Positions 7,622 to 62,362 of a stretch of 64,000 nucleotides of DNA are shown here, piece by piece. The stretch is from Clostridiales bacterium (GTDB taxonomy: Bacteria > Bacillota > Clostridia > Peptostreptococcales > Anaerovoracaceae). The stretch lies in contig SVCS01000002.1 of the NCBI GenBank assembly GCA_015058205.1, positions 6,396 to 70,395 of the forward strand, read 5' to 3'. The stretch's first letter is position 1, and every line of letters begins with the position of its first letter. Under the pieces are notes generated by a model. It was given only the letters and a program-made list of their open reading frames with translations. It was not told the DNA's origin and made no database searches. Position numbers and translations under genes: made by a program.

Positions 7622-7657
7622 CAACTCGAATGAGTTGAGAAATGTATCACGAATAAA

Positions 7658-15118: not shown

Positions 15119-15178
15119 GATAATCGAGATATATATCGAGATACGGGATATTAGAAATAAAACAAAAGGTATTTGCAT

Positions 15179-16930: not shown

Positions 16931-16938
16931 GGACCGAG

Positions 16939-23408: not shown

Positions 23409-23409
23409 C

Positions 23410-24033: not shown

Positions 24034-24049
24034 TCCAGGGAGGAGCGAC

Positions 24050-24457: not shown

Positions 24458-24467
24458 ACCAAAAGAC

Positions 24468-25241: not shown

Positions 25242-25251
25242 GAGGAACACC

Positions 25252-41168: not shown

Positions 41169-41222
41169 TAAACAATATTAGAATAGTACCGATGATTAAT
41201 ACTTTGTTAAGGAGATAGTAAT

Positions 41223-44200
41223 ATGCAGGTGAAGAAAAAAATAGTGTTGATTCCATCCGCATACAATCACAAGGCAATGGGAGACATTGAAAATTTCATA
41301 AAGTATTACAAAGATCCATTTGATGTTTATGTAATAACCGATGTTGAATACCCTGGAGGCGAAGAACTCAAAGATGGTGTTCTTTATGTCAACAAAAAAG
41401 AGAAAAAAGCAAAATACCTTGTTGCGACCGCTGATTATATTATTGATGCGGGTACTGTAGGAGGAAGGACTAAGATTTCTGCATCTCAAAAGCGAATCAG
41501 TGTTTGGCATGGGATTCCGTACAAAAAAATGTTCTCTGAGCTTGATAAGAAATATATACCTGACGCAATTGATTACGCTGAAGGATACGATCTTATGGTT
41601 TCACCATCAGAATGGTATACAAAAAAATTTTTGCAACAGTCAATGCTCTATGGAGGCAAGGTTCTTGAAACCGCAGTTTCCAGAACGGATTCCTTGTTTA
41701 TTGACGATGAACAGAAGATGCAAATAAAAAACAGCTTAGGTATTCCAGAAGGGAAGAAAGTGCTGCTATATGCACCTACTTTTAGGCAACCAGGAGCCAT
41801 AGACTTACCATTCTCAGCTGATAAGTTGCAGACTGTAATGGGTGACAATTGGGTTATTGTTGTTAAACTTCACTACTTAAATACATTGACAAAAGAAAAA
41901 GGTGTTATTGATGCGACCTCTTACGCATCAGTAAACAATCTATTAGCTATAGCGGACTTATTAGTGACTGATTATTCAAGCCTTTTGTTTGATTATTCAA
42001 TTCTTAGAAAGCCAGCGCTTTTGTATCAGTATGATCGGAAGGAGTATGAGTCAGAAAGGTCTTTCATGTTTAACATGGAAGAATATGTTGATAATAAATA
42101 CATTGTCTTCAATGAGCAGGATTTATATAAGCAGTTACTTAGCATCGATTTAGTTGAAGCAAATCTTGAGAAAGTTAGAACTGGGTTTTATCCACATCAG
42201 AAGCACAATTCAACAGAAGAACTAGTCAAACAGTTATCGCTTGATTCCACAAACAGAAAAATGAAAGAAGTATTTTTTCTGGTTAATGAGCTCAATCAAA
42301 TCGGTGGAGTACACACTTTCATAACGAATCTTGCAAGAGAGTTTAAAACAAAATACGACGCAAAAGTATTTGTAATTGGAACAAAAGAGTTTGACCGCAA
42401 TAAAGATAAGTTGTTCTTATTTGATAAAGATAATCTGTTTGATATTAAATTAAGTGTAGAAAACAACAAAAAGGCTGTTAGGAATATTTTAAAGAGTACT
42501 GACGGTTATATTATTTCATGTCAGTTAGGAGCACATAAATCTGTTCAGAAGTATTTAAAGGACAAGAAAGCAGTCCTCATGTTTCATGGGGATGCACAGG
42601 ATGTAGTTGATCGCAATATATACAGGGGTCATTTGGATGAATATAATGACGGCATTGCAAAAAATTACAAAAGGCTTATTTTCCTGACAAAAGGAAATAG
42701 TGAAGTAATAAAAGATCACTTAAAAGATGAGGTGCGCGCAAAGACAATCCATATCGAAAATGGTATGGACTTTAGTGACAGAAAGAGTTTGTATAAAGAA
42801 AGTGGAGATTTTGTATTAGTATCTCGTTTGGATCCGGATAAAAATCCAATGGAAGCGATAGATATTTTTTCTGATTCGAATCTTCATCCGGAAAGAAGGC
42901 TGCATATTTATGGTGATGGTTCATTACGTCAGGAAATGGAGAGAAAAGTTAAAGAAAATAACCTGTCCGATCGTATTATTTTCCATGGGTATGTTGAAAA
43001 TAAAGAAGAAATATATAAGGACAAACAGGGACTTATATCCATCAGCTTAACAGAGGGATTACCATTGACTGTTTTAGAAGCAGTAAAGTATGGAATACCA
43101 GTATACTCCTATGATTCTTTTACGTCTTGTGGGGATTTAGTTACTGAGAAAACAGGAATAAGGGTAAAAGCAGGAGATAAAAAAGCTTTTGTAAGTGCAC
43201 TAAATAATACGTTTGATTATAGTGGGTTTGACGGTGATGAACTAATTAGTACATTTTCAAATGATAATGTGACCCAAAAGTGGGAAGAACTGTTTGAAGA
43301 ATTGGATAAGGAAGTCAATGACTCAAGAAGCAAAAGGAGTCAAAATAGCAAGAATAAGAAGAATAAGAAGAATAAGATAAATGTGTCTTCGATCAAGAGG
43401 GTAATACGTAACAGCATTTTATTTGAAAACAATGAATTATATCCAGAAATAGCTGTAAAAATTAAGGAAATGCGTAATTCTGACAAGGCAATTAAGAAGC
43501 CTCTTGTTTCCATTATTATGCCTTTTTATAACAACAATGAGACCATATATCGCGCGGTGAGGTCTGTCAAAAACAATGGGTATGACAATTATGAAATAAT
43601 ACTAGTAAATGATGGGTCAGAAGAGGATCCTAGACCTCTTCTGAAGAGATTCAAAAAAATACAATACTATTATAAAGAGAATGGTGGACTAAGCAGCACA
43701 CGTAATTATGCTATGGATAAAGCAAGAGGAAAATATGTCATCTTTCTGGATTCGGATGACATACTATATCCTGGCGGTTTGAATAAAATGGTAATGTATG
43801 CAGAAAAGAACAAATTAGATATGGTTTCCGGCCTTACAGTTCGCCAGTATGTAAATCAAAAGGAAATAGAGTATTGGTATAAAGGCATCTATAAAAAAAC
43901 ATGCATCAATAGAAAAATAGACCGTTATAAGATAATAAAAGACACGATAGCTACTGGCAAACTATATAATCTTGATATGTTGAAAACAAATGACATCAGA
44001 TTTAAGGATGGATTATATGAGGATGTCCTGTTTACGGGTCAACTATATGCGCTTTTAGATAAAATCGGAATTGTAAAGAATGTATCTCAAAAGTGGATGG
44101 TTTATGGAACGGGTACATCCATCACAACCAGACACTCTATAAAGAATATCAGGGCCCGTTTGGATAATGTAGACACCATATATAGGTTACAATCTGATGT

Positions 44201-44474
44201 GATGAAGGCGTATTATACAGAGAACTATATCAATCATCATATGTTGGCTTGCATATATGGTTACAACAATTTATTAGAAAGTGAGAAGAAAGAAGTCTTT
44301 GAATTATTACGTCAAGGAATTACGAAGAGGGCGGACTATATAGTAGATAAGCTGATTTTACGCCCTAGTGTTAAGGAATTGTACAAATCTCTCCTAGATA
44401 ATGATTATGATCGTTTTTCTGTCATATGTGAGGGATTCTCTGCGTGGTATTATGATTTTCATAATGATATGTGA
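41223..44474 (+). CDS. Tri-domain enzyme: TagF-type phosphotransferase + GT4 + GT2 glycosyltransferase
   Basis: The TagF part has VLLYAPTFRQ and LVTDYSSLLFDYSILRKPALLYQYDRKEY. The GT4 part has SLTEGLPLTVLEAVKYGIPVYSYD. A Lys/Asn-rich linker (KNKKNKKNK) follows. The GT2 part has VSIIMPFYNNNETIYRAVRSV...EIILVNDGSEE...FLDSDD. Confidence 0.75.
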   Translation: MQVKKKIVLIPSAYNHKAMGDIENFIKYYKDPFDVYVITDVEYPGGEELKDGVLYVNKKEKKAKYLVATADYIIDAGTVGGRTKISASQKRISVWHGIPYKKMFSELDKKYIPDAIDYAEGYDLMVSPSEWYTKKFLQQSMLYGGKVLETAVSRTDSLFIDDEQKMQIKNSLGIPEGKKVLLYAPTFRQPGAIDLPFSADKLQTVMGDNWVIVVKLHYLNTLTKEKGVIDATSYASVNNLLAIADLLVTDYSSLLFDYSILRKPALLYQYDRKEYESERSFMFNMEEYVDNKYIVFNEQDLYKQLLSIDLVEANLEKVRTGFYPHQKHNSTEELVKQLSLDSTNRKMKEVFFLVNELNQIGGVHTFITNLAREFKTKYDAKVFVIGTKEFDRNKDKLFLFDKDNLFDIKLSVENNKKAVRNILKSTDGYIISCQLGAHKSVQKYLKDKKAVLMFHGDAQDVVDRNIYRGHLDEYNDGIAKNYKRLIFLTKGNSEVIKDHLKDEVRAKTIHIENGMDFSDRKSLYKESGDFVLVSRLDPDKNPMEAIDIFSDSNLHPERRLHIYGDGSLRQEMERKVKENNLSDRIIFHGYVENKEEIYKDKQGLISISLTEGLPLTVLEAVKYGIPVYSYDSFTSCGDLVTEKTGIRVKAGDKKAFVSALNNTFDYSGFDGDELISTFSNDNVTQKWEELFEELDKEVNDSRSKRSQNSKNKKNKKNKINVSSIKRVIRNSILFENNELYPEIAVKIKEMRNSDKAIKKPLVSIIMPFYNNNETIYRAVRSVKNNGYDNYEIILVNDGSEEDPRPLLKRFKKIQYYYKENGGLSSTRNYAMDKARGKYVIFLDSDDILYPGGLNKMVMYAEKNKLDMVSGLTVRQYVNQKEIEYWYKGIYKKTCINRKIDRYKIIKDTIATGKLYNLDMLKTNDIRFKDGLYEDVLFTGQLYALLDKIGIVKNVSQKWMVYGTGTSITTRHSIKNIRARLDNVDTIYRLQSDVMKAYYTENYINHHMLACIYGYNNLLESEKKEVFELLRQGITKRADYIVDKLILRPSVKELYKSLLDNDYDRFSVICEGFSAWYYDFHNDM

Positions 44475-44559
44475 GATGGGATACTGATAGGTGAGTGAAC
44501 GCTTAATAATGGCAGCAGATGCTTGCAATAGTACTGACAATGAAAAGGTGAAGTGACGT

Positions 44560-45711
44560 ATGTCTGATCATAAAGCAAAAAATAAAATAATCGATTTTTT
44601 ATCATTTGAAAGAGTTGAGCCCATGTTTAGCGGGGGCGGCAGAGATTGGTCTGTTGATGTGCTAAGATGTTTGTCGTGTTTTATGGTGTGTGCAATACAT
44701 GCAACAAGAATGTCTGTGGATAACGGAATTAGTGATATGGGATCCAATCCATGGCTTCACAATGAAATCTACAGCACAATTGTAGCTTCACCTACGGTAT
44801 TGTTTGTCATGGTTAGTGGTATTTTTTTCCTTTCGCCTGAAAGAAATGTCAGAGCCAGCAAAATATGGAGAAAAAATGTCATCAAGATGGCTTTTGCATA
44901 CATTTTCTGGTGTCTGATATATGCATTGCATAGAATCTATATTATGGACCCTATGCCTGATATAACATTTGATTTTTTTATTCGTCAGTGGATGGTTCAG
45001 CCAACACATTTGTGGTATATTCCAATGATTATTGGGCTATATATTATCAGCCCAATAATCAGGCCAATAACTGCTACAGGAGATACAAAACTATTCAGGT
45101 ATACGGTTTTAATATTTATCGGTGGCCTAATTCTTTGGACGATATATGTTTGGCCGACTCATGTTGAAGGTACTTATTCGAATATCATTATTGGCAAAAC
45201 CCCGATGAATCTGCTGTGTCAATACCCGTTTTGGATGATTTATGGGTGGATAGCATATACATATAGACCCAAAAAAGCTTTCAGATATTTGATTTATGGA
45301 TTTGGAATCATTGCAATATTAATTGGAATATATGCTAATTATTATATGTGGAGCACTACTGGGAATACATCTTTCACAGCAACAACACAACAGTATAGCA
45401 TTGTTTCATTTGTGAAAAACACAGCGATTTTCTACTTTGTAGTTACGACGTTTAGAGATCATGAGTTCTCACGATTTGGCAAGTTCTTTTTAAGAAAGTG
45501 GTCTGATTACACGCTAATAATATATCTGGTTCATTTTTTAATACTAGTGATAATGTTTCAGAATAACTTTCTATATGGTGATGGGGTTTCACCTTGGATT
45601 GGAGTCTGGCTTTATGCGTTGATTGCATATGTAGGAGGTGGCATTTTAGCATTATTATTCCATTTGATTTGGGATCCTATTAAAAAAGTACTATTTACGA
45701 AAAAATCGTAA
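44560..45711 (+). CDS. Acyltransferase family 3 membrane protein (O-acetyltransferase type)
   Basis: VDVLRCLSCFMVCAIHA at the N-terminus and about 10 TM segments. Confidence 0.7.
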   Translation: MSDHKAKNKIIDFLSFERVEPMFSGGGRDWSVDVLRCLSCFMVCAIHATRMSVDNGISDMGSNPWLHNEIYSTIVASPTVLFVMVSGIFFLSPERNVRASKIWRKNVIKMAFAYIFWCLIYALHRIYIMDPMPDITFDFFIRQWMVQPTHLWYIPMIIGLYIISPIIRPITATGDTKLFRYTVLIFIGGLILWTIYVWPTHVEGTYSNIIIGKTPMNLLCQYPFWMIYGWIAYTYRPKKAFRYLIYGFGIIAILIGIYANYYMWSTTGNTSFTATTQQYSIVSFVKNTAIFYFVVTTFRDHEFSRFGKFFLRKWSDYTLIIYLVHFLILVIMFQNNFLYGDGVSPWIGVWLYALIAYVGGGILALLFHLIWDPIKKVLFTKKS

Positions 45712-45772
45712 GTGTATTTGTTATATTAATTCTTATTTGATGGTTGTAGGTAGAAAGAAACTGTGAAATAAC

Positions 45773-46852
45773 ATGGAAAGGGAGAGAAATAACGGAATTG
45801 ATTTATTAAGAATAATTGCGATGTTTTTTGTTGTTATCCTTCATGCTCTTGGACATGGTGGTGTTCTTGATAATGTTGAAACCGGTTCACCGCAGTACTC
45901 CTTGGCTTGGGCGCTGGAAATCATCGCTTATCCTGCGGTTGATACGTTTGCTCTTATTACAGGATATGTTTCCTTTTCTCAACGGCATCCTTATTCCCTT
46001 GCAAAAACCTGTGCCGGTTACAGTACTACATGGCTTCAGGTGGTATATTACTGCGTTTTGATAACAATTGCCTTGCAGATAATCAATACTAAATGGATAA
46101 CTATTAGTGATCTGATTTATTCCTTTTTTCCAGTCACGAACAATATGTATTGGTACTTCACAGCATATACAGGAGTGATAGTACTTTCTCCATTAATAAC
46201 AGCAGGGGTTCGAGGTCTATCTAATAAATCAGCGGTTTATATTTTAATCATAATCCTCCTTGTGTTTTCTCTATTTGATTCTTTTTCTATGCGCTTTTCT
46301 CTTAATAGTGGCTATTCAGTAATATGGCTTTTGCTACTCTATTGTGTTGGTGCAATCATGAAAAAAATATGTGCACCCGAAAAACTTACAAAAGGCAAAT
46401 GTGTTTTATGTATTCTGATTCTATACATTCTAACTTGGTGCTGGAAGATCTTTATAGGAGGGGATATCAAAATAATGACGTTGTCCCTTACAAATGACAG
46501 CCTCGTTTCATATACTTCCCCAACAATAATTTGTATTTCAATTTTATATTTGGCGCTCTTTGCACAAATTAAAACCGGACCAATAACCACAAGCGTGATA
46601 CGATTTCTTGCACCAGGAGCTTTCTCGGTATATCTTTTGAATGACAATAGGTTAATTAGAGCACATTATATAGAAGGACGATTCGATATGATTGTGGTTG
46701 AAAATAGTTGGCATCTATTTCTGATTATTGTATGTTTTGCTATTGCTTTCACAATTATAGCGCTTTTTGTAGATAAACCTCGGCAATTGTTGTTTAATAA
46801 GATGCTAATAAAAAAACGAATTGAAAAGTGTGCAGATAGGCTCATAGGATGA
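45773..46852 (+). CDS. Acyltransferase family 3 membrane protein, second copy
   Basis: NNGIDLLRIIAMFFVVILHALGHGG at the N-terminus and about 10 TM segments. Confidence 0.75.
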   Translation: MERERNNGIDLLRIIAMFFVVILHALGHGGVLDNVETGSPQYSLAWALEIIAYPAVDTFALITGYVSFSQRHPYSLAKTCAGYSTTWLQVVYYCVLITIALQIINTKWITISDLIYSFFPVTNNMYWYFTAYTGVIVLSPLITAGVRGLSNKSAVYILIIILLVFSLFDSFSMRFSLNSGYSVIWLLLLYCVGAIMKKICAPEKLTKGKCVLCILILYILTWCWKIFIGGDIKIMTLSLTNDSLVSYTSPTIICISILYLALFAQIKTGPITTSVIRFLAPGAFSVYLLNDNRLIRAHYIEGRFDMIVVENSWHLFLIIVCFAIAFTIIALFVDKPRQLLFNKMLIKKRIEKCADRLIG

Positions 46853-46886
46853 TGCCTTCATCGTTCATGATTATTAAACAATTCTC

Positions 46887-46914
46887 TGACGTACAGCTTC
46901 CTGTACGTCATTTT
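46887..46914 (+). terminator. Rho-independent terminator
   Basis: TGACGTACAG-CTTC-CTGTACGTCA followed by TTTT. Confidence 0.75.
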
Positions 46915-47002
46915 ACTGATGAAACAGAGCCGACATTAAAACTCTTGCCTTGGATTATTAATAGAAGATAATGCTTCTTAACTATTAATAACACACCAAA
47001 TC

Positions 47003-47011
47003 TGCTATAAT
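47003..47011 (+). promoter_or_regulatory. Extended -10 element (TGCTATAAT)
   Basis: TGCTATAAT lies 38 nt upstream of ATG 47049. There is no good -35 box. Confidence 0.4.
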
Positions 47012-47048
47012 TATTTATGTATAAGCTAATTTCAAAAAGGACAGACAA

Positions 47049-50000
47049 ATGAAACGGGAGCAAGAAGGCTTACTATTACTTCTAAAAGAAATTGATACCA
47101 TATGCAAAAACAATGGTATTACATATTATGTTTCGGGTGGAACCGTTATTGGTGCAGTGAGACATGAAGGGTTCATACCATGGGATGATGATATCGATGT
47201 CTACATGACGCGCGATAATTGGAACAAATTCCGCAAAGTGATGAAGACACAAACTCCGGAGATGCGAGCGCTTGTATGCTGGGAGGATGATGAGGATTTC
47301 AACAATCTTCTTGGTAGATACATGAACAAAGCGACAACACAGATACACCAGTTCCAATTGTATAACAAATCTGCCAAGGGGCAGCTTGTTGATATGTTTG
47401 TTCTTGATCCAATCATCGATGATGATCAAGCTATCAGGCAGTATCAGAGCGATGTCATGCTCATTTCAGATCTTATGAGTGACTTAATTGTCTATTCGAA
47501 AAGAGCAAATTCTTGTGATGAATATGCAGAGCTGCGTGACAGAATCACTGCTGAAGGACGTATTAATGTAATCAGTGAATTAATTGGGCGTCTTGAAAAG
47601 TATAATGAAGAAGAATCCGACTATTATATCTTAAGGTGGGGCGGAATACCGCATGTATTCCCTAAAGAAATGTTCGCAGAACCTAAATATCTCCAATTCG
47701 AAGATATGAACGTCCCAGTGCCATCGAAGGTGTGTGAGTATTTGGTTCAGCTTTACGGTTTGGATTGGATGTATATACCTCCTCATGATGAGCAGCTTGT
47801 GCACACAGGCATTTTTGATTCAGAGCAGCCATATGAGAGATTTACTGATTTAATTCTTCCAAGAGTAAAAAACACTGAAACTGAAGATATCCTTGTAAAC
47901 AGAAAAAAGGAATTATTTAGCAATCTTCAGTTCACACATGAGCTTCACGAGGAAAGGATGCTCATAAAAGGTGATTTTGTCAGACGAAAAGTGATAAATC
48001 AGGTTGAAGAGAAGGGTATCGAAATCAGCAATTCGAAGGTTCTTAGAGATACAGAGAAGATGCGCCCTTTAATGAAGGATTATATCCGCATGCAATCGCA
48101 TCGAGATTATATAGGCGGCAATGATTTTCAGGGTTATTACCGGAAGAGAAATCCTATTTTTGTGGACATAGGGGATGAGCTTTTTGCTGCTGCATTAAGA
48201 GTTATGATTCAGGATGGACGCATTTCAAAGGCCGATCGCTTGATACAGGTCCGTCAGCAAAAGGTGAAAAGACCAATGGAGCCGTATCTGGATAGCATAC
48301 AGGCCATGATAAACGGACTGAAGGAAGTCCAGACCATGTTCGAATTCAATCAACTTGATAGGGCGGAGGAGTTGTTGAAAACCATCGTAAAGACAGAGAG
48401 CAACATCGAAGTCTATAAATACTTGCTGGAACTGATTCAGAGAAAGGACGGAAGTACATCCGAAAGATTCAATAAACTTCTTGAAGAGTGTCTCGCTAAA
48501 TGGCCGGATGATGGGGACTTTCTCAAGTATAAGGGAGATGCGCTTTTCGGACAGCAAGATTATCAGGCAGGAATCAAGGCGTATACCAATGCATTGTTAA
48601 ACAGCAATAATGGGTTGTTTGCGTTATTAATCGGGAAGTCTGTGAATAATCAAAAAGAGGAACTATTAGACTATTTAGAGACAATAATCCAAAGTGCTGA
48701 TGGCATTGCAGCTACAGGAGCATGGAAAACAATATTTGTTGATGATACAGATATCAGCAAATTATACTTAAAAACACATATTAATGGAGATGATCCATTT
48801 GCGAATCTCTTTAGAGAAAATGCTTGCATTAAAGATGAGGAAACTGTTGAATCGATTTGCAGTACTTACGCTGAAATTCTTGGATGGAGTACAGATAATG
48901 TCCGGTTTGTTTTAGCGGACACTGGTTTGATTAAGGGAAAAGATTACGACACTGTTTCCTTTGATGATAAAACAGATATTTCCAAATATCTCAACGCAGT
49001 AATTCTTCAGAAAAATGGAGATGTACGTGAAGCGTACAAGATTTATTTGGAATTATTGGATTCTAAAGATCGATATGTTGCAAAAAACATCAGAAGCAAA
49101 CTGGAAAACGACCATAAGTTGTTTATCAAAATGAAAACTGAAGAGGATGATCATTATTTCCAGTTGGACTATGCACTTAAGTATGGGGATATGCCTTATG
49201 AGGAGTTCCTCAAACTGTTGAAAGTAACGAATTATCCTAGTATACGAAACACTGCAATTGAGACAGACCATAGTGACGTTGCTCTGAACAATCCATGGTT
49301 TAAATTGCTTGTTGAGTTGATACAAATCTGCGAAAGAAACGACATTCAGTATATGTTGGGTGGAGCAATCCTGCAATATCTGATCAAGGATATAGGTCCG
49401 GTGCCAAACGACTTCAGCAACATGGAACTCATTATGGACGGCACAAACGCGCAGAAGCTGATAAAAGCATGTCATGATTTGCCTGAAGATAGAAATCTGG
49501 AGTGCGTATTGACGAACCCGCGATTGAGAAACAGCGATATGCTTTACATTAATACCGCTTCAACCGGAGTGGATTTCAGCAAGTTGGATCGCAGGAGAAG
49601 TCTCGGGATTGCGGTTCCAGTAAGAATTGCAAGGCCACAAGTGAAGTCATCTAGGAGAATGACTGCAGCAGATTTTGATAAGTTCTGGCTAATTAACTAC
49701 GGATATCCATTCCGTGTGTTGAAACTCAATGATAAAAGAGACAGGCAGCGCAATCGGCTATTCACAATAATGAATAAGAATGGCGACAAAGCTACATTGA
49801 AGAATTTCAGAAACATTCTAAAGCAAGAAATAAGTAAAGATACGAAAATAATATATGTCTATGGAAATGTTACAAGGTTGATGCATAAGGCAATTCTTTG
49901 GAAGGAAAGAAAACCGGCAGAATTGTTCGGCGTCAGGGTCGTTGTGCCAAGTAATATTGAGCGGTACCTGAATGCGAACTATCATACTGATAGTAAGTAT

Positions 50001-50372
50001 TATGATATTCCAATTACAGTCGTTGATGAAACTTACGTGGATCATGTTGGTGAAGAGAAGATTTATTCAGATGAAGAATTCTGGAAAAGAATAGAGGATA
50101 ATAGGAAGCTGACATTTACTAATAAAGATCAGTCAAGAGAACATAAGAACAACTGGGAAATGGCAAACAACATTTATGAAGGGATAACGATTCAGGACCG
50201 CCTCCTGTCTGATTTCGGGAGATTGAAACGCATTTATGATAAAGGAGCATATACAGAGTTGCTGAATCAAATGGACGGCTACAAGAAGGTCCTGAAGTTG
50301 GAGAAGAAGTACGATATCGACATCGATTCGGAGCTAGAGAAGTTATACCTCGAGGCGAGGAAAAAGATATGA
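47049..50372 (+). CDS. Giant LicD protein: canonical N-terminal LicD, helical/TPR-like middle, degenerate second LicD-like domain
   Basis: Domain 1 is ITYYVSGGTVIGAVRHEGFIPWDDDIDVYM. The middle region is helical-repeat-like. Domain 2 (nt ~49300-50000) is IQYMLGGAILQYLIKDIGPVPNDFSNMELIM and lacks the DDD motif. Confidence 0.75.
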   Translation: MKREQEGLLLLLKEIDTICKNNGITYYVSGGTVIGAVRHEGFIPWDDDIDVYMTRDNWNKFRKVMKTQTPEMRALVCWEDDEDFNNLLGRYMNKATTQIHQFQLYNKSAKGQLVDMFVLDPIIDDDQAIRQYQSDVMLISDLMSDLIVYSKRANSCDEYAELRDRITAEGRINVISELIGRLEKYNEEESDYYILRWGGIPHVFPKEMFAEPKYLQFEDMNVPVPSKVCEYLVQLYGLDWMYIPPHDEQLVHTGIFDSEQPYERFTDLILPRVKNTETEDILVNRKKELFSNLQFTHELHEERMLIKGDFVRRKVINQVEEKGIEISNSKVLRDTEKMRPLMKDYIRMQSHRDYIGGNDFQGYYRKRNPIFVDIGDELFAAALRVMIQDGRISKADRLIQVRQQKVKRPMEPYLDSIQAMINGLKEVQTMFEFNQLDRAEELLKTIVKTESNIEVYKYLLELIQRKDGSTSERFNKLLEECLAKWPDDGDFLKYKGDALFGQQDYQAGIKAYTNALLNSNNGLFALLIGKSVNNQKEELLDYLETIIQSADGIAATGAWKTIFVDDTDISKLYLKTHINGDDPFANLFRENACIKDEETVESICSTYAEILGWSTDNVRFVLADTGLIKGKDYDTVSFDDKTDISKYLNAVILQKNGDVREAYKIYLELLDSKDRYVAKNIRSKLENDHKLFIKMKTEEDDHYFQLDYALKYGDMPYEEFLKLLKVTNYPSIRNTAIETDHSDVALNNPWFKLLVELIQICERNDIQYMLGGAILQYLIKDIGPVPNDFSNMELIMDGTNAQKLIKACHDLPEDRNLECVLTNPRLRNSDMLYINTASTGVDFSKLDRRRSLGIAVPVRIARPQVKSSRRMTAADFDKFWLINYGYPFRVLKLNDKRDRQRNRLFTIMNKNGDKATLKNFRNILKQEISKDTKIIYVYGNVTRLMHKAILWKERKPAELFGVRVVVPSNIERYLNANYHTDSKYYDIPITVVDETYVDHVGEEKIYSDEEFWKRIEDNRKLTFTNKDQSREHKNNWEMANNIYEGITIQDRLLSDFGRLKRIYDKGAYTELLNQMDGYKKVLKLEKKYDIDIDSELEKLYLEARKKI

Positions 50373-51670
50373 AAAGAATTATTACATACGGCACATTTGA
50401 CCTCTTTCATGAGGGCCACTACAACATGCTGAAAAGAGCAAAGGCGGAGGGGGACTACCTCATAGTTGGAGTTACCGGTGATCGCTATGATGTCGGCAGA
50501 GGGAAGCTGTCTGTTAAAGATAGCTTAGCAACAAGGATTGAAAATGTTAAGAAGACAGGTTTTGCCGACATGATTATCACAGAAGAGTATCTTGGGCAGA
50601 AGATTAGCGATATCATAAAGTATGATATTGATACTTTCGTTATTGGTGATGACTGGCGAGGAAAGTTTGATCATCTAAACAACTATTGTACTGTGAAATA
50701 TATAAGCAGAACAGAAGGTATTTCCAGTACAAAAATCAGAGAAGAAGAATTCAAAATCAACAGGATTGGAATTATAACAGATAAAATGAGTGACAATCAG
50801 ATTGTGAAAGAATCTGGATTGATTGCCGGAGTATCCGTAGGGAAAGTGTATGCTGAAGATGGCACCCTCGCAGGTAAGTTCAATAATAATTACCAACTGC
50901 AGGGAGTCGCGGGCAACCTTAGAGAACTCTTTGAAGATTCTGATGTAATTTACATCAGGGTTGATATTAAGGATAGGTACAGATTTGCCAAAGAAGCACT
51001 TCAAGCCGGAAAGCATGTAATCTGCGACTTTCCTTTTTCGCTTGATTCCGGGGAACAGAAAGAACTATGGAACATTGCTAGAGAGAAGGAGAGAATTCTT
51101 CTGGACAACATCAAAGCGCCATATTCCCAGACGTTTATTCAGATGATGTGGGCAGTGCAGGGAGGCTTAATCGGAGATGTCATTGATTTCAATTGTTCAG
51201 TTTCAAAGAAAGATTTGGATATCCCGTATTTGTTCTATGAACTGGCAGCAATGGCAGTTGCACCAATGCTGAAAATACTTGGGCACGATTATACTAGTAT
51301 GGATAGCAGGTTAATACATGAAGGTGATGCAATTGAATTTGCCACGATGTATTTTGAGTATCCGACTGGAAGGGCAAAGATCAATGTCGGAAATACAATC
51401 AGAGTAGAGAATCAGATAGAGATTATCGGAACAAAAGGCACTGTGAGAATAGGAGATAACTGGTGGAAAGCTGATTATTTCGAAATGGATAAAACAGATG
51501 GAACCAATGAAGTCTTCAATATCAATTTCAACAGCAATGGATTCCGATTCCTGCTGGCAAATTTGGTAGATATGATTAGCCAGGGTATCATAGAAACCAA
51601 ATTTTTCTCAGAAAGAGATTCCAGAAAAGTTACTGCAATATTGGAAGAAGCTATCGCAAATAGGGAATAG
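50369..51670 (+). CDS. Fusion: TagD-type cytidylyltransferase + Gfo/Idh/MocA-like oxidoreductase domain
   Basis: The N-terminus is IITYGTFDLFHEGHYNMLKRAKAEGDYLIVGVT...RTEGISSTKIR. The C-terminal part has AGKHVICDFP (compare the EKP motif) and a dimerisation-domain-like tail. The usual GxGxxG is replaced by RIGIITDKMSDN. Confidence 0.7.
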   Translation: MKRIITYGTFDLFHEGHYNMLKRAKAEGDYLIVGVTGDRYDVGRGKLSVKDSLATRIENVKKTGFADMIITEEYLGQKISDIIKYDIDTFVIGDDWRGKFDHLNNYCTVKYISRTEGISSTKIREEEFKINRIGIITDKMSDNQIVKESGLIAGVSVGKVYAEDGTLAGKFNNNYQLQGVAGNLRELFEDSDVIYIRVDIKDRYRFAKEALQAGKHVICDFPFSLDSGEQKELWNIAREKERILLDNIKAPYSQTFIQMMWAVQGGLIGDVIDFNCSVSKKDLDIPYLFYELAAMAVAPMLKILGHDYTSMDSRLIHEGDAIEFATMYFEYPTGRAKINVGNTIRVENQIEIIGTKGTVRIGDNWWKADYFEMDKTDGTNEVFNINFNSNGFRFLLANLVDMISQGIIETKFFSERDSRKVTAILEEAIANRE

Positions 51671-51679
51671 GAAGGAACA

Positions 51680-52738
51680 ATGTATTATTTAAACGAAAAT
51701 GTCCGTGATCTGTACAGAATATTTGATCAGAATTCCAGAGAAGAATATCTGCGTATGGACCTGAATGAAAATCCGGGAGGACTGCCGGAAGAGTTTATCA
51801 GAACAGTACTTAGTGAAGTTACTCCACAGTTTGTTGCGCAGTATCCGGAAACAAAAGAGTTTACGGAAAAACTCGGTGCGAAAATTGGCGCTAAGCTTGA
51901 AGAGATATGCTTGACAAATGGTTCCGCAGAAGGAATCAGACATATTATAGAAGCCTATTCAAGGCCTGGCGGAAACATCCTTTCAGTTGCACCGTCATAT
52001 GCTATGTATGAGGTGTATTCGAAGATGTACGGAAGGAATCATATTGGGGTGTCCTATGAAGATGACCTCAGTTTTGATGTAGACAAACTGATTGAAAAAA
52101 TTACGCCGGATATCGATCTTGTCGTGGTGTTAAATCCAAACAATCCTATGGGAGATGTCTATTCCTATGAGGAAATGGATCGTATCGTGGCAGCTGCTAA
52201 GGAAAATGAAGCAACAGTTTTGATTGATGAGGCATACTATTATTTCTACCCGAATTCCTTCATAAAGTATGCGTTGGAGAACGACCATGTCTTTTTGACG
52301 AGAACTTTTTCGAAGTTATTTTCTCTGGCTGGGTGCAGACTTGGTTATGTTGTAGGTCAGGCAGACGGAATTGAAATGATACAAAAGCTGTGCACGCCTC
52401 ATAATGTCAATGCTTTTGCAATGAAGTTCGCAATGGCTATCATGGAAACACCTGGCATGCTTGAATCTCTAATTGAGAAACAAGTCAATGGTAAGAAACA
52501 TCTTGTTGACGAACTCAGAAGGCATGGGTATGAGGTTAATGCCAAGGAAGGAAACTTTGTTTTTATTCAACCAAAGACAGATGCAAATACAATTGTCGCT
52601 AGGATGAAAGCAGAGAAGATGATTTTAATTAAAGCATATCATGGGATTGGCAATCTGAATGACTGCCTGCGTGTTACAACGGGAGAGTCAGAGCTGATGG
52701 ACGTTTTTATTGAAGCGTTACTTGAGCTGGATCAATAA
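51680..52738 (+). CDS. Class II (HisC/CobD family) PLP-dependent aminotransferase/decarboxylase
   Basis: MDLNENPGGLP, NPNNPMG and RTFSKLFSLAGCRLGY (PLP Lys) are all HisC-family blocks. Confidence 0.8.
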   Translation: MYYLNENVRDLYRIFDQNSREEYLRMDLNENPGGLPEEFIRTVLSEVTPQFVAQYPETKEFTEKLGAKIGAKLEEICLTNGSAEGIRHIIEAYSRPGGNILSVAPSYAMYEVYSKMYGRNHIGVSYEDDLSFDVDKLIEKITPDIDLVVVLNPNNPMGDVYSYEEMDRIVAAAKENEATVLIDEAYYYFYPNSFIKYALENDHVFLTRTFSKLFSLAGCRLGYVVGQADGIEMIQKLCTPHNVNAFAMKFAMAIMETPGMLESLIEKQVNGKKHLVDELRRHGYEVNAKEGNFVFIQPKTDANTIVARMKAEKMILIKAYHGIGNLNDCLRVTTGESELMDVFIEALLELDQ

Positions 52739-53260
52739 ATGATGAGGAATATGCATCTGATGAATGAAGGACTGTATTTAAGACAATTGAGCATAACTGA
52801 TGGAGAAGACATCTATCAGTTGCTCCAGCAGATTGAGGCGAATGAGCATGAATTCAAGAATGATGCTTTTGGAATGGATTGTTCAGAATTCAAGGAATGG
52901 CTGGAGTTACAGGACAACTGGGCAAACAATAGATGTTTGCCAGAAGGGTATGTCCCACAGACAATCTATTGGCTGTTCCAAAATGATACACCAGTTGGAT
53001 TTGGGAAAATCCGCCACAGGTTGAATGAACATTCCAGAATAATCGGTGGAAACATAGGCTATGCTATCGGCAAACCATATAGAGGACATGGTTATGGGAC
53101 TGAACTCATGAAACTATTGGTCATTAAGGCTGATGAGTTAGGGGTTACGGAGAAACTGGCTACCGTTGAAAAAGATAATCCTGCATCTAAGAAAGCCATT
53201 GAGAGGGCTGGTGGGAAATTGGTTAAAGAAACAGAAGAACGGTGGTATTTTGAATTTTAA
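52739..53260 (+). CDS. GNAT family N-acetyltransferase
   Basis: Motif A is YRGHGYGTELMKLL, and NPASKKAIERAGGK lies in the C-terminus. The start follows immediately after the upstream stop. Confidence 0.7.
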   Translation: MMRNMHLMNEGLYLRQLSITDGEDIYQLLQQIEANEHEFKNDAFGMDCSEFKEWLELQDNWANNRCLPEGYVPQTIYWLFQNDTPVGFGKIRHRLNEHSRIIGGNIGYAIGKPYRGHGYGTELMKLLVIKADELGVTEKLATVEKDNPASKKAIERAGGKLVKETEERWYFEF

Positions 53261-53272
53261 GAGGATGGTATT

Positions 53273-54691
53273 TTGCTTCTAAGAACACTAAGAAACGCAC
53301 TTGTAAAACCAGTTATTTCAGTAATACTTCCAGTTTACTGCGGAGAAAAATATTTGGCAGAAGCCATAGAAAGCGTTATCAATCAGACAATTGGTATAGA
53401 AAAAATACAGTTGCTTCTAATAGATGATGGAAGCACAGACAGTTCGCCGAAAATCTGTAAACGCTATGCACAATTATTCCCAGATAATATTTTTTATTAC
53501 CGAAAAGAAAACGGTGGTCTTTCGAGCGCTCTTAATCTGGGTTTATCTGTAGCAACAGGAAAATATATCGCCAAACTTGACTGTGATGACACATGGGATT
53601 TGGAGGCATTTGCAGAAATAGTTGATTTCTTTGATGATCATTATTCTGAAATTGATTGTTTGAGTGTTCGAATTAGAATATTTGGTGATATGGAGTATGA
53701 ACATCCCCTGAATTTTAAGTATACAAAGAACAGAGTCATAGATTTAACAAAAGAGCCATATTCCATACAGACCATCGGGGGGAATACTGTTTATAAAGCA
53801 AAAGCATTAAAAGGCTTATCGTTTGATGAGAATATTAAGATTCTTGAGGACGTAGTTTTTAATACGAGATTCTTGAGATCGCGATCCAAATATGGTGTTA
53901 TATCTAATGCTTGCTATAACTATCGAAAAGTTAAAACAGAGAAATCATTATCCAATCAATCTTACTTTGATCGTTACTGGTATCTGAAAACACCATACGA
54001 AGTGTTTTTTCCTTTGATTAATGAATCAAAGGAACAGTTTGGTAAAACGGATCGTTATACACAGGCTGTTGTTGCGTATTTTTTGAGATGGAGGATTCCT
54101 CCGACTGGGATAAGGGAAACGTTGAACGATGCAGAGATTGAGGAGTATACAGGTATCATTCGTGCATTATTGCAGGAAATAGATGATGATATTATCGCAT
54201 CGATAAAAGGTGCCCTATATATGCACAGGAATTATCTGTATAAATTAAAGTATCAGAGGGATCCTTTTGAAATTGCGGAGTTGAATAAAAAAGGAAAGTA
54301 TCTTCTTAACGGAAATGTGATTTTTAATGCTTGCGGCAGTGGTTTGGCCAGAATTGAGAGAGTTGACACAACTGATTCCGAGACTGTTGTGACTGGAGAA
54401 AGTAGTATCCTTCAGGCAGAAGGACGATGCAGTCTTCATGCTGAAGACAGAGAAGGGAATGAAGTTCCCGTTGAAGTTACAGCTAACCCTGCTACCGATG
54501 TGTATGGTTTTACAGGAGAAATCATTAAAAGAGGCGCTTCTTTCAAAATGATTTTCCCAAAGCCGTTTGATGGGGTGTTCCGCGTTTATACAACACTTGA
54601 GGATTTGCCTGGAAAGTTTTATTGCACAGTTACTTTTGGACCTGATGTACAGGGTACTTACTCGAAGGAATCAGGGGATGTGATGTTATAA
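53273..54691 (+). CDS. Glycosyltransferase family 2 with a ~230-aa C-terminal extension
   Basis: ISVILPVYCGEKYLAEAIESVINQT...LLLIDDGSTDSS...KLDCDD. TTG start 6 nt after GAGGATGG. Confidence 0.8.
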   Translation: MLLRTLRNALVKPVISVILPVYCGEKYLAEAIESVINQTIGIEKIQLLLIDDGSTDSSPKICKRYAQLFPDNIFYYRKENGGLSSALNLGLSVATGKYIAKLDCDDTWDLEAFAEIVDFFDDHYSEIDCLSVRIRIFGDMEYEHPLNFKYTKNRVIDLTKEPYSIQTIGGNTVYKAKALKGLSFDENIKILEDVVFNTRFLRSRSKYGVISNACYNYRKVKTEKSLSNQSYFDRYWYLKTPYEVFFPLINESKEQFGKTDRYTQAVVAYFLRWRIPPTGIRETLNDAEIEEYTGIIRALLQEIDDDIIASIKGALYMHRNYLYKLKYQRDPFEIAELNKKGKYLLNGNVIFNACGSGLARIERVDTTDSETVVTGESSILQAEGRCSLHAEDREGNEVPVEVTANPATDVYGFTGEIIKRGASFKMIFPKPFDGVFRVYTTLEDLPGKFYCTVTFGPDVQGTYSKESGDVML

Positions 54692-54733
54692 CTAATGATA
54701 TTATGCTACAAAAATGATATGAATGAGGTGACT

Positions 54734-56731
54734 ATGAAGAAAAGACCGAAATTGAGAACCCTGATTTGTATGATGATTATACTGACAATGATCATCGTAG
54801 TTCCTATAGGCACGGCAGAATCTTCTTTTGCTGCGAAGAAAAAAACAGCAGCTCCAAAACTGAAGACCCTGCAGTATTATCAGAACGCAAATGGATCTTA
54901 TAGTGCTACACTAACTTGGTATTCAAAAAAAGGATACACCTACCAGATATTGAGAAAGGCTCCGGGAGGAAAATACAAGGTTATTGCCAAGAAAAAAGCA
55001 AAGGGTAAAACAACCAAGTATGTCAACAAAAAAATCGGAGCGAATAAGACATACATTTATTCTGTACGTCAGTACAAGGCTAAGCGCAAAAAAAAGATCA
55101 GCAAGTATGATCCTTATGGCCTTCAGTTGATGAAAAGGCCAACAGTTAGCGTAGATTTTCAGAACTTGAAAGCAGTTATCTCCTGGTCTGCCGTTGAGCA
55201 GGCCGATGGTTACTGTGTATATCGGAAAGTTGGATCTGACGGTACCTATCAGAAGATAGCGACCCTTGGTTCATCGGCAAGAAGCTATACAGAGGTATAC
55301 CGTTCTGCAAAAGGAATCTCGTCCAACAAAATTAATGCAGGGCATTTTATCGACCCATCGTACAATTCGCTTCATTACACGGTTCGTCCATATCATGTGT
55401 CAACCTACAAGAATATAAAGAAAACAAGTTGGGGACTATATTCTCGTGACGGTGAGTTTCATCTTGAACCGCCAGTTATTGTCAATCTGACCAAATCCAG
55501 TATTAAGTGGGGAAATGTTCCGAATGCAAAGTCGTACCGCATTCTCAAAAAAAGCAGTCCGAATGGTTCATGGTCGTCGGTCAAAACAGTAACACGCAAA
55601 TCCGGTACAACCATGTCGGCAAGTATGTCTATTAATTCGAACTCATACTATGCAGTGCAGGCAGTTTCTTCAAAAAACGGAAAGAAAGTGTACAGCAAAG
55701 TTGAACCGGGTGCAACCCTAAAATATGCTGGCAGTGAACAAAAGATACTCTATTTTGGGGACAGCATCACCTATGGCTCACCGTATAAAGGAAATACAAC
55801 CAGACACATTTTTTCTTATCCTAATAGAGTACATCTTCTGACTGGAGCGAAGTTCTATAATCCTTCCATTCCAGGGTCTACATATCATTATGCAAAACCT
55901 GATACAGATGAAACCGGAGGACGTTACCGCATGGTTACCGGTGTAGTGGGAAAAATCCGGGATGGGAATAATCCAGATAATTATGTCAAACTGGATACCG
56001 CGAACAAAAAAAGCGTGAACGGAATAAAGGATGGGTCAACTATTTCAGATTACGATGTGGTCATTATGGCGGCTGGAACAAATGATTATCTGGATAATAC
56101 GCCACTAGGCGCTGAGGATTCAGATGATATCAGCACATTTAATGGGTCATTCAATACAATCATGTCTGATATTTCCGCTGCCAGCCAAAAGAGGCTGGAA
56201 AACGGTATGCCTGGAATTCAGGTTGTATTCGTAGATCTCTTTTATAGTGACAGAACTTATCCGAGCAATTATGGAGAACGCAACAACAGGGACGTTACTC
56301 CAAATAAGATAGGACTTACACTTCAAGATTATCAGAAAGAACTTAACAAAGCATATGAAAAATGGTCTGCTGAACCTTCACTCCGCTTATTCCATTTTGA
56401 AACAAGGAAATACGGGATTGTGGATAACAGCAACTGTCCTTACATGGCGTCGGACAACCTTCACTTCACCAAGTATGCTTACGCACAATATGGCAATGCT
56501 CTGGCTGACTTCCTAAGTCAGGTTGTATTCCCAGGTGAACGTGCTTTGCCAGATGATTTTGTCACCACGGAACCAGAAGAAACTACTGTTGTGGACGTAG
56601 ATAATTCCCCTGCTACGAATGAGGCTGAACCACCAGCTGTGGAAGAGGGGAATACTCCTGTCACAGAAGGAGAAGACGACCCTGTTGAGGAAGAAGGGAA
56701 CACTCCTGTCGTTGAAGAAGCGACCCCATAA
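54734..56731 (+). CDS. Secreted protein with Fn3-like modules and an SGNH/GDSL esterase domain
   Basis: Signal peptide. Fn3-like modules are YTYQILRKAPGGKYKVI, GYCVYRKVGSDGTYQKI and SYRILKKSSPNGSW. The SGNH blocks are ILYFGDSITYGSP, MAAGTNDY and SDNLHFT. The acidic C-terminus carries the repeat EEGNTPV. Confidence 0.7.
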   Translation: MKKRPKLRTLICMMIILTMIIVVPIGTAESSFAAKKKTAAPKLKTLQYYQNANGSYSATLTWYSKKGYTYQILRKAPGGKYKVIAKKKAKGKTTKYVNKKIGANKTYIYSVRQYKAKRKKKISKYDPYGLQLMKRPTVSVDFQNLKAVISWSAVEQADGYCVYRKVGSDGTYQKIATLGSSARSYTEVYRSAKGISSNKINAGHFIDPSYNSLHYTVRPYHVSTYKNIKKTSWGLYSRDGEFHLEPPVIVNLTKSSIKWGNVPNAKSYRILKKSSPNGSWSSVKTVTRKSGTTMSASMSINSNSYYAVQAVSSKNGKKVYSKVEPGATLKYAGSEQKILYFGDSITYGSPYKGNTTRHIFSYPNRVHLLTGAKFYNPSIPGSTYHYAKPDTDETGGRYRMVTGVVGKIRDGNNPDNYVKLDTANKKSVNGIKDGSTISDYDVVIMAAGTNDYLDNTPLGAEDSDDISTFNGSFNTIMSDISAASQKRLENGMPGIQVVFVDLFYSDRTYPSNYGERNNRDVTPNKIGLTLQDYQKELNKAYEKWSAEPSLRLFHFETRKYGIVDNSNCPYMASDNLHFTKYAYAQYGNALADFLSQVVFPGERALPDDFVTTEPEETTVVDVDNSPATNEAEPPAVEEGNTPVTEGEDDPVEEEGNTPVVEEATP

Positions 56732-59074: not shown

Positions 59075-60130
59075 ATGCGCAAAAAAAGAACCTGGCCTTT
59101 ACTTGTTCTATTGATTTTGTTTCTAATATTTGATGCAATCGGCATCACTGTTTTTTGTATCACGGAGCTGAAGCGGGCGGACAGCCTGGACAGCTACACT
59201 GCGGATACGATTCATTATTTCTACGCAGAAGAACCTGATTCCCTGGATGGCATTTACCTGGGTTCCAGCGCCGCCAATCGGTACTGGTCGCCGGCGGAAG
59301 CCTTTGCAGAAGAGGGAATCTGCATCTATAATCTGGGCACCTACATCCAGCCCTTTGTCGCCACCAGATATCTGATCGAAGAAGCTCTGAAAAGTCAGAC
59401 TGAAATGGACGTGATCGTCGTTGAAGTCCGTAATCTCGTCCGGCCGCCGGACAAATATGATTCCGACGACTTCAAACGTGTCAGCGACTTGATGCCTTAC
59501 TCCTCCAACCGCAGCGATATGATCGAAGCATACCTGGAGTACTGCAAAGAGATTGAGGCGGAAATCGACTACGAAAGCGATGATTACTATGTGCCGGCCG
59601 TCCGCGATGACGGAGAGTGGGCGGAAGATTATGATCTCAGCCTGTTGGAGGACCTGTATGATGACACCAGTATTGAACAGGACAAAGGCTTCAACGCATC
59701 CTTCGATGTGAAGCCGCTCAGTGAGCCGCCGGAGTATACAGACCGGGAGCCTCTCACCAGAACCCAGGAGGAGCTGCTGAGAGAACTACTGTCCTACTGC
59801 CGGGAAATCGAACCGGAGGTCGTTTTCGTATCAGCACCGTTCGCTTCTCTGGGAGGCAGGGAAGGCATGCTCCGGACGGCCCTCGATATCTGTGAGGAAG
59901 AAGGATTCAAAACCCTGGACTTCAACTGCGAACCCCTCCGGAGTCAGCTTGGGACTGATTGGAATCAGGACTTCTACAACGGCAAGCACATGAACTGGTA
60001 CGGCGCCAAGAAATACACGGACTTTGTGGCCGCCTATCTGGCCGAGACATACGACCTTGCCGATCACCGCCAGGAAGCCGGGTATGACAGCTGGAACAAA
60101 GCCGTTGACACATTGCCTGGTTCGCGATAA
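59075..60130 (+). CDS. Membrane-anchored DltD-like / SGNH-fold protein (putative MBOAT partner)
   Basis: N-terminal TM segment. LGSSAANRYW is a candidate nucleophile motif like the GSSE of DltD. The C-terminal DFYNGKHMNWYGAKKYTDFVAAYL...DHRQEAGYDSW resembles the DltD/AlgX-like tail. Confidence 0.5.
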   Translation: MRKKRTWPLLVLLILFLIFDAIGITVFCITELKRADSLDSYTADTIHYFYAEEPDSLDGIYLGSSAANRYWSPAEAFAEEGICIYNLGTYIQPFVATRYLIEEALKSQTEMDVIVVEVRNLVRPPDKYDSDDFKRVSDLMPYSSNRSDMIEAYLEYCKEIEAEIDYESDDYYVPAVRDDGEWAEDYDLSLLEDLYDDTSIEQDKGFNASFDVKPLSEPPEYTDREPLTRTQEELLRELLSYCREIEPEVVFVSAPFASLGGREGMLRTALDICEEEGFKTLDFNCEPLRSQLGTDWNQDFYNGKHMNWYGAKKYTDFVAAYLAETYDLADHRQEAGYDSWNKAVDTLPGSR

Positions 60131-62283: not shown

Positions 62284-62300
62284 GCAGCCAAAAGCTGCAA

Positions 62301-62354
62301 GCAATACAGAAACAAATAGTAATACAGAAACAAAAAGCAATGCAGAAACGAGGA
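62301..62354 (+). repeat. Three tandem 18-nt units upstream of the MoxR gene
   Basis: GCAATACAGAAACAAATA / GTAATACAGAAACAAAAA / GCAATGCAGAAACGAGGA. The last unit contains the AGGAG RBS. Confidence 0.7.
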
Positions 62355-62362
62355 GCAGTAAG

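Follow-up and report, generated by a model that had tools for sequence, protein, structure and literature searches.

What do four contiguous genes that combine a LicD-type phosphotransferase, a cytidylyltransferase, a pyridoxal 5′-phosphate (PLP) enzyme and an acetyltransferase make together? This question is raised by a 64,000-nucleotide stretch of contig SVCS01000002.1 from a Clostridiales bacterium (hereafter the window), in which an initial annotation, made from the sequence alone, had pointed to such a cassette. We found the four open reading frames (ORFs) exactly where they had been described, at 47049-53260 and all on the + strand: a LicD-type phosphotransferase of 1107 aa (47049..50372), a 433-aa fusion of a TagD-type cytidylyltransferase with a Gfo/Idh/MocA-like domain (50369..51670), a HisC/CobD-family PLP enzyme of 352 aa (51680..52738) and a GNAT protein of the Acetyltransf_3 family with 173 aa (52739..53260). 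The first two ORFs overlap by 4 bp, the next two are separated by 9 bp, and the last begins one base past the stop of the PLP gene, leaving no gap. All Pfam matches of the cassette proteins lie far above the curated cut-offs, including those for the two families joined in the fusion, so this part of the initial annotation stands. We think it probable that the cassette makes and transfers an amino-alcohol phosphate activated by cytidine diphosphate (CDP). The fuller reading, in which it is a self-contained head-group module that adds a phosphodiester-linked amino alcohol to a surface polysaccharide or teichoic-acid-like polymer by way of serinol phosphate, seems to us evenly balanced between right and wrong. 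That the genes act jointly on a CDP-activated, amine-bearing phospho-alcohol moved by LicD had already been proposed, and the proposal gained support from the linkage of the PLP gene to a cytidylyltransferase in 28 of 29 loci, the recurrence of the block elsewhere, the alternation of amine-modifying genes beside the PLP gene, and the finding that the PLP enzyme is not a housekeeping one.

Linkage of the PLP Gene to a Cytidylyltransferase

We assembled 29 loci around the PLP gene, dereplicated at 95% identity and with at least 2 kb of flanking sequence. In 28 of them a TagD-type cytidylyltransferase is encoded no more than 6 kb from the PLP gene, and in 19 it is directly beside it (at most 300 bp away); the full fusion is present in 26, and in the 29th locus the fusion is cut by the contig end. 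LicD occurs within 8 kb of the PLP gene in 23 of the 29. From the standpoint of the PLP gene, linkage to the cytidylyltransferase is essentially obligate. Two loci (L165 and L166) carry the 1107-aa LicD, the fusion, the PLP gene, the GNAT and a GT2 glycosyltransferase in the same order as the window, in the context of another polysaccharide locus; in the window the GT2 gene, assigned by Pfam, follows the GNAT on the + strand at 53273..54691. Identity to the window, scored for four of the five genes, amounts to 95% for the PLP enzyme, 89% for the fusion, 83% for the GNAT and 70% for LicD, and judging from these sequences the five-gene block seems to be mobile as a whole. In Bacteroides capsule loci the PLP gene comes before the fusion, which is followed by LicD (L081 and L082) or by GT2 (L083 and L084). 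The trio of PLP gene, cytidylyltransferase and LicD is thus found in Bacteroides capsule loci, in Firmicutes and in Methanobrevibacter (L004). A further locus, L126 (8724-14018), consists of a TagF-like gene, a HisC-like gene, a PhnW/AepZ-like class-V aminotransferase, a standalone TagD-like gene and another TagF-like gene (the TagF-like labels were assigned by eye), with no Gfo/Idh/MocA-like domain and no LicD. Because the pairing persists there without that domain, we regard the cytidylyltransferase as the conserved partner of the PLP gene.

The PLP enzymes of L081-L084 are 68-70% identical to that of the window, and their partner fusions only 35-38%; the PLP gene is either far more constrained than the fusion or has been exchanged between loci. 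Fusions 52-55% identical to the window's occur in L004, L005, L016 and L003 (Methanobrevibacter and an archaeal metagenome-assembled genome, MAG), and the Methanobrevibacter locus L004 also has a HisC-like gene at 66% identity. As far as sequence similarity goes, these archaeal copies would imply that the module has been transferred between bacteria and archaea in gut habitats.

The picture differs when it is drawn from the fusion. Of 80 genome loci of the fusion, each taken with ±10 kb of flanking sequence, 52 contain LicD, five a PLP ortholog (Ruminococcus, Methanobrevibacter, Eubacterium nodatum ATCC 33099 and two Clostridia MAGs) and none the window's GNAT. Co-conservation of all four genes, which the initial annotation had suggested as a check, is therefore not seen from the fusion side, while from the PLP side it holds for the cytidylyltransferase. 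These counts bear on a simpler account, according to which the fusion makes CDP-glycerol only, for transfer of the LicD/TagF type, and the PLP enzyme and GNAT serve elsewhere, for example in providing an amine for amide linkage to a uronic acid, as happens with serinol in Campylobacter. In its favor are the 75 of 80 fusion loci that lack a nearby PLP gene, where pairing with LicD is still seen, the cytidylyltransferase residues, which are alike in PLP-linked and unlinked fusions, the ATP-grasp and HAD genes elsewhere in the window, and two large TagF-like genes just 5′ of the cassette. However, it leaves the closeness of the PLP gene to a cytidylyltransferase in 28 of 29 loci, across phyla, unexplained. 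Moreover, no ATP-grasp amidoligase or HAD phosphatase is listed near the trio in the Bacteroides loci L081 and L082, there are no TagF genes near the related block in L165, and the window has a bona fide TagD of its own (16927-17385; 190 bits on TIGR01518, above the cut-off of 165), so the TagF enzymes do not need the fusion for their CDP-glycerol. We consider the account decidedly unlikely.

Identity of the PLP Enzyme

The PLP enzyme matches Aminotran_1_2 in Pfam (9e-43) and contains the motifs that the initial annotation had read from it: MDLNENPGG (aa 27-35), LNPNNPMGD (151-159) and TFSKLFSLAGCRLGY (209-223). The PLP-site residues K212, D183, N155 and R220 and the C-terminal R331 are invariant in the family alignment, as befits a fold-type I enzyme of the HisC/CobD group. 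Two basic positions for phosphate or carboxylate, K318 and R331, are also kept; we take them to correspond to R322 and R335 of E. coli HisC. As HisC is the best family match, the gene could in principle be a housekeeping hisC placed here by chance, an outcome that would have undone the initial proposal. Its score on the HisC equivalog model TIGR01141 is 238.9 bits, below the cut-off of 276.55, and although Foldseek ranks HisC entries first, identity to the solved HisC structures is 25-28%. The Asp of the HisC GADE motif, presumably the imidazole-binding residue, is an invariant Ala in the PLP family (G81-S-A83-E84, aligned to the E. coli and T. maritima enzymes). Furthermore, the family keeps 60-95% identity across Firmicutes, Bacteroides eggerthii and Methanobrevibacter, always within glycan loci, Bacteroides capsule loci included, and has at least 512 confirmed metagenome matches. 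On score, motif and locus setting we rejected a housekeeping role, which we find scarcely credible. The name given by NCBI to the Bacteroides eggerthii copy is only "pyridoxal phosphate-dependent aminotransferase".

Two PLP-dependent capsule enzymes of Campylobacter jejuni HS:2 offer precedents for the chemistry: Cj1437 converts dihydroxyacetone phosphate (DHAP) into (S)-serinol phosphate, as the initial annotation had stated for a Campylobacter capsule enzyme, and Cj1436 converts L-serine phosphate into ethanolamine phosphate (PMC11800397). As in the cassette, a PLP enzyme sits in a surface-polysaccharide locus; there it converts a central metabolite into a phosphorylated amino alcohol, as is predicted here. 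The likeness is one of described function, and neither Cj1437 nor Cj1436 appears by name among the PDB matches of our PLP enzyme in sequence and fold searches.

The second of these precedents suggests an ethanolamine route, in which a Cj1436/CobD-like decarboxylase would turn O-phospho-L-serine into ethanolamine phosphate, the cytidylyltransferase would make CDP-ethanolamine, LicD would transfer phosphoethanolamine and the GNAT, where present, would acetylate it. Apart from the decarboxylation of L-serine phosphate by Cj1436 itself (PMC11800397), two observations point this way: CobD-type decarboxylases are also significant matches of the PLP enzyme, and the human ethanolamine-phosphate cytidylyltransferase 3elb is a detectable relative of the cytidylyltransferase domain (45 bits, E 5e-11). 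The scores lean the other way. The PLP enzyme reaches 157.2 bits on the CobD model TIGR01140 (cut-off 290.55), compared with 239 on the HisC model, and the family profile run against the PDB gives 139 bits for HisC and 55-88 bits for CobD-type entries; this places the enzyme nearer to the aminotransferases than to the CobD-type decarboxylases and is weak evidence on its chemistry. The cytidylyltransferase domain is far nearer to the glycerol-3-phosphate enzyme 1coz (116 bits) than to 3elb, and retains the TagD-like residues D95 and W96. We hold the ethanolamine route, the chief rival to transamination, to be unlikely. A second aminotransferase that occurs near the PLP gene in six loci was considered as a SerC feeding phosphoserine to such a decarboxylase, and was rejected since it is PhnW/AepZ-like and not SerC-like. 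The PLP enzyme is predicted to supply an amino-alcohol phosphate; that this is serinol phosphate in particular is our tentative choice, about which doubt somewhat exceeds confidence.

The Fusion Protein and the Question of Oxidation

The N-terminal part of the fusion (aa 1-126; 50369..50746, + strand) is a TagD-type cytidylyltransferase with HxGH and RTEGISST motifs. It matches CTP_transf_like (PF01467) over aa 5-125 (4.5e-15, 56.5 bits against a cut-off of 21), and the catalytic residues H14, H17, R114, T115, S119 and S120 do not vary in 93 fusions that remained after dereplication at 90% identity. Its best PDB matches are 1coz and 2b7l, and on the TagD equivalog TIGR01518 it scores 118-122 bits, below the cut-off of 165.4. 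We predict that this domain makes a CDP-amino-alcohol. The family is very large, with more than 6000 matches and, in a collection of species-representative genomes, at least 582 confirmed ones, and its carriers include Lachnospiraceae, Blautia, Mogibacterium, Eubacterium nodatum, Selenomonas, Bacteroidales, Actinomycetota, Paenibacillus and Methanobrevibacter.

The rest of the protein (aa ~130-433; 50756..51670, + strand) has a Gfo/Idh/MocA fold. The Pfam match to GFO_IDH_MocA covers aa 159-244 (2.2e-9, 38.5 bits against a cut-off of 24), the AlphaFold (AF2) model, with a confidence score (pLDDT) of 83, shows the complete two-domain fold at aa ~125-433, and Foldseek aligned the model to 3e9m (E 3.7e-24, TM 0.86) as well as to KijD10 and GnnA. 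The residues expected of an oxidoreductase are nevertheless missing. At the position of the dinucleotide-binding loop the window's fusion has G134-I-I-T-D-K-M-S-D-N143 in place of GxGxxG/A, and its sister fusions have GIIGTGRIANRF. When GKHVICDFPF is aligned to the GKxVLxEKPF of 3e9m, 3evn and 3e82, the lysine of the EKP motif falls on F221; the same alignment position is found in KijD10 (3rc9, shown as the K102A mutant). Several invariant polar residues are kept in the degenerate domain (D138, D142, N143, R203, H216, D220, N247 and K249). By its motifs the domain is probably a relic or a scaffold and not a dehydrogenase.

We compared 131 fusions from the fetched loci and found four kinds: one fully canonical (GIIGTGRIAxRF, EKP and GGS..ELGSY), one rich in Bacteroides (GLVGES and ESP), the window's own subtype (GIIxDxxDDN and DxP) and one rich in Blautia (GIVTDDxEDN and DxP); nearest-neighbor labels agree in 120 of the 131. 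In the set dereplicated at 90% identity, none of the 35 fusions with intact loop and lysine is linked to a PLP gene, compared with 29 of the 58 degenerate ones (Fisher p 3e-8, in a test that ignores phylogeny and joins two differently sampled sets).

This distribution is the opposite of what is predicted if the domain first oxidizes and the PLP enzyme then transaminates, which was the order of events proposed in the initial annotation: glycerol-3-phosphate or CDP-glycerol would be oxidized at C2 by the Gfo/Idh/MocA domain and the ketone transaminated. It is true that the fold is complete, that an oxidoreductase with an aminotransferase is the standard logic of amino-sugar synthesis, and that a few PLP-linked fusions (L087 and L162) retain an intact GxGxxA loop. 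However, the loop of the window's clade reads GIITDKMSDN and its EKP lysine is Phe, none of the 29 PLP-linked fusions has the lysine, all 35 intact fusions lack a PLP gene, and L126 has no Gfo/Idh/MocA-like domain at all. We therefore abandoned this order, which we judge very unlikely. With DHAP as the substrate, as in the case of Cj1437, no oxidation step is required, and its direct transamination is the simplest route. The pattern is what would be expected if transamination of a keto-phosphate had replaced its reduction, or if the reductase had become needless, and by their motifs the intact sister fusions probably reduce a keto-phosphate before it is activated. The split between intact and dead oxidoreductases within one fusion family makes it a clean example of pseudoenzyme evolution.

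Two loci with intact-motif fusions were looked at for the keto substrate. Beside its fusion, L068 (11370-14448) has GDPD, a dehydrogenase of the PdxA family and another TagD-like gene, whereas L078 (12274-14580) has an NTP-transferase fused to a PLP domain resembling serine hydroxymethyltransferase (SHMT), and in both a conserved protein of ~865 aa with no Pfam match is encoded just upstream of the fusion. Nothing decisive about the keto substrate came from these neighbors (LicD, GDPD, PdxA-like and the NTP-transferase/SHMT-like fusion).

Predicted Transfer by LicD and Modification of the Amine

The catalytic LicD domain occupies aa 19-237 of the 1107-aa protein (47103..47759, + strand; PF04991, 1.5e-35, 123.8 bits against a cut-off of 22.6), and its DxD-type metal motif is intact in the translation (W45-D-D-D-I-D50). 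It is predicted to transfer the phospho-alcohol from the CDP donor to a glycan. A second LicD-like domain (aa ~752-1015; 49302..50093, + strand) shares 23% identity with the first one (E 2e-6) and has no Pfam match. Where the first domain reads PWDDDIDVYM, this one reads PND-FSNMELIM, with FSNMEL aligned to DDDID, and having lost the DxD it is probably non-catalytic. The "double LicD" of the initial annotation is hence correct as a statement of homology, while only the first domain looks catalytic. The protein is itself a fusion of a LicD and TPR-like part (aa 1-~700) with the DxD-less LicD-like part (aa ~750-1107), which in relatives are two adjacent genes. In Methanobrevibacter (L004) aa 1-523 correspond to a 546-aa LicD+TPR gene (E 4e-55), and aa 751-854 to the gene after it, which encodes 391 aa and is also without DxD; such a split pair, a LicD+TPR gene followed by a DxD-less gene of ~400 aa, was found in 10 related loci.

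The GNAT matches Acetyltransf_3 (PF13302; 5.3e-17, 63.2 bits against 25.4) and PF00583 (46.3 bits against 20.7), and among PDB entries it has only weak matches, to the Pat acetyltransferase. Its predicted role is to acetylate the amine of the head group. We clustered the neighbors of the PLP gene over 33 loci and found the window's GNAT in 6, a second GNAT-like family of ~268 aa (the L167 copy of which matches PF00583) in 9, an opine dehydrogenase of the octopine/nopaline type in 9, and the PhnW/AepZ-like class-V aminotransferase in 6. The opine dehydrogenase (PF02317, 83 bits; at 10515-11636 in L004, and also in L006, L092, L097, L103, L105, L118, L148 and L151) could N-carboxyalkylate the head-group amine. 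Its presence near the PLP gene in nine loci brings to mind the N-(1-carboxyethyl)ethanolamine phosphate substituents of some O-antigens, a point in favor of the ethanolamine route. Since these amine-modifying enzymes alternate beside the PLP gene, they are good circumstantial evidence that its product carries a free amine.

A Proposed Route to a Phospho-Serinol Head Group

From the gene content, motif states and co-conservation that we observed, we infer a route to phospho-serinol, each chemical step of which is meant conditionally. The PLP enzyme would convert DHAP and glutamate into serinol phosphate; the TagD-type domain of the fusion would use serinol phosphate and CTP to form CDP-serinol; and the N-terminal LicD domain would move phospho-serinol onto a sugar of the polymer, which the GT2 enzyme may add, this enzyme possibly being the one that builds the acceptor sugar. 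The GNAT would N-acetylate the amine at some stage of this route. The Gfo/Idh/MocA-like domain would be the catalytically dead descendant of a reductase domain, in a lineage where transamination took over from reduction.

Several points weigh against this route. DHAP as substrate of the PLP enzyme is a prediction. The GNAT has an ortholog in only six of the 29 dereplicated PLP loci. Close relatives of the window's fusion have no PLP gene within 10 kb (L001 and L016), and given these the cytidylyltransferase domain may simply take glycerol-3-phosphate. No position of that domain consistently separates PLP-linked from unlinked fusions, the discriminating columns being nearly all in the Gfo/Idh/MocA-like domain or clade-specific. 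The degenerate domain, with its kept polar residues, may have an activity that we do not recognize, and the neglect of phylogeny and the different sampling of the two locus sets count against the Fisher test.

A broader conjecture, which we put forward with rather more doubt than conviction, is that a horizontally spreading module of three to five genes makes CDP-serinol, optionally N-acetylated, or N-carboxyalkylated where the opine dehydrogenase is present, and that LicD places zwitterionic phospho-serinol on capsules and wall polymers in gut-dwelling Bacteroides, Firmicutes and Methanobrevibacter, the module having arisen from a reductase-cytidylyltransferase fusion in which the dead domain was left behind.

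Comparison with Known Systems

A pathway close in logic is that of TagD/TarD, where CDP-glycerol is used by TagF or LicD: the cytidylyltransferase has the same fold, with HxGH and RTxGISST, and a CDP-alcohol donor is likewise combined with a phosphotransferase. The cassette differs from it in scoring below the TagD equivalog cut-off, in the Gfo/Idh/MocA-fold domain fused to the enzyme, in its amine-forming PLP partner, and in the genuine TagD that lies separately in the window. In Bcs1/TarIJ, which makes CDP-ribitol, and in the pneumococcal Gtp1-3, which make CDP-2-glycerol, a cytidylyltransferase works with a coupled or fused oxidoreductase to turn a keto- or hydroxy-phosphate into a CDP-alcohol that decorates polysaccharides. 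The intact-motif sister fusions may work in a similar way. Those systems, however, combine an IspD-type transferase with a short- or medium-chain (SDR/MDR) reductase, whereas the window's fusion combines a TagD-type enzyme with a degenerate Gfo/Idh/MocA domain and has an aminotransferase in the reductase's place. LicC/LicD phosphocholine systems and PntC-type systems for CMP-aminoethylphosphonate share with the cassette the transfer, by the LicD family, of a nucleotide-activated small cationic head group, giving zwitterionic substituents. They rely on a LicC/NTP_transferase and on imported choline or phosphoenolpyruvate mutase, in contrast to the TagD-type enzyme and HisC-like PLP enzyme found here. 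In Campylobacter, finally, an ATP-grasp ligase joins the product to glucuronate through an amide bond, after which the phosphate is removed, whereas the cytidylyltransferase and LicD of the cassette imply a head group linked by a phosphodiester.

In the full-text literature that we searched there was no mention of CDP-serinol, no paper linking LicD, a cytidylyltransferase and a Gfo-type domain, nothing relevant on serinol together with teichoic acid, O-antigen or Bacteroides, and nothing relevant on CDP-ethanolamine together with LicD. The logic of a CDP-alcohol and LicD is well known; the donor, the combination of enzymes and the history of the pseudo-oxidoreductase appear to be undescribed. 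Small charged groups on surface glycans, such as phosphocholine, D-alanine, phosphoethanolamine and aminoethylphosphonate, control recognition by the immune system, adsorption of phages and resistance to cationic peptides, and if our reading is true there is one more surface head group, with a CDP donor of its own. Within Bacteroides capsule loci the module may be one way in which zwitterionic capsular polysaccharides are made, and its occurrence in methanogens suggests that glycan-decoration genes have crossed between bacteria and archaea. Gut microbes make bioactive N-acyl serinols, for which the source of serinol was not stated (PMC13012048); quite speculatively, a widespread enzyme forming serinol phosphate would be a candidate for that source.

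Setting of the Cassette in the Window

The ORF upstream of the cassette encodes an acyltransferase and ends at 46852. In the 197-bp gap that follows, a terminator-like hairpin with a 10-bp stem and a T run (46887..46910, + strand) probably marks the start of a new transcription unit. A promoter scan returned 39 sites where 41.8 are expected by chance. The cassette is part of a low-GC island that spans positions 40000-56000 (33-40% GC, compared with ~50% in the flanks), and this composition suggests horizontal acquisition. The island also holds a giant gene combining TagF, GT1 and GT2, two acyltransferase-3 genes, the GT2 gene and a gene for a 678-aa SGNH protein.

The window as a whole is given over to wall polymers and exopolysaccharides, with two LytR-CpsA-Psr (LCP) ligases, an ABC-2 exporter, three TagF-like and four LicD genes, flippase-like (Polysacc_synt) and Wzy-like genes, glycosyltransferases and acyltransferases. 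The window also has, at 6578-9583 and 13019-15118, a pair of genes of the "sugar-transfer associated ATP-grasp" type and one for a Mur-ligase-like protein that carries leucine-rich repeats of the BspA type as a fusion, all of them odd for a wall-polymer locus. Farther downstream, two ORFs of 351 and 456 aa (59075-60130 and 60913-62283) have no Pfam match and are followed by an AAA+ ATPase gene (62204-63208).

Cytidylyltransferase/LicD pairs occur three times in the window, separately from one another. One is a conventional CDP-glycerol/LicD pair, in which a 585-aa LicD+TPR-type gene lies directly 5′ of the bona fide TagD (15173-17385). Another, at 22464-25962, comprises an ATP-grasp gene with a PylC-like N-terminal domain, a HAD hydrolase, a divergent cytidylyltransferase of 135 aa (only 71 bits on TIGR01518), LicD and an Asp/Glu-type racemase whose top NCBIfam match is cysteate racemase. 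This group may be a second unusual head-group module, making another non-standard CDP-activated substituent, possibly one that bears an amino acid.

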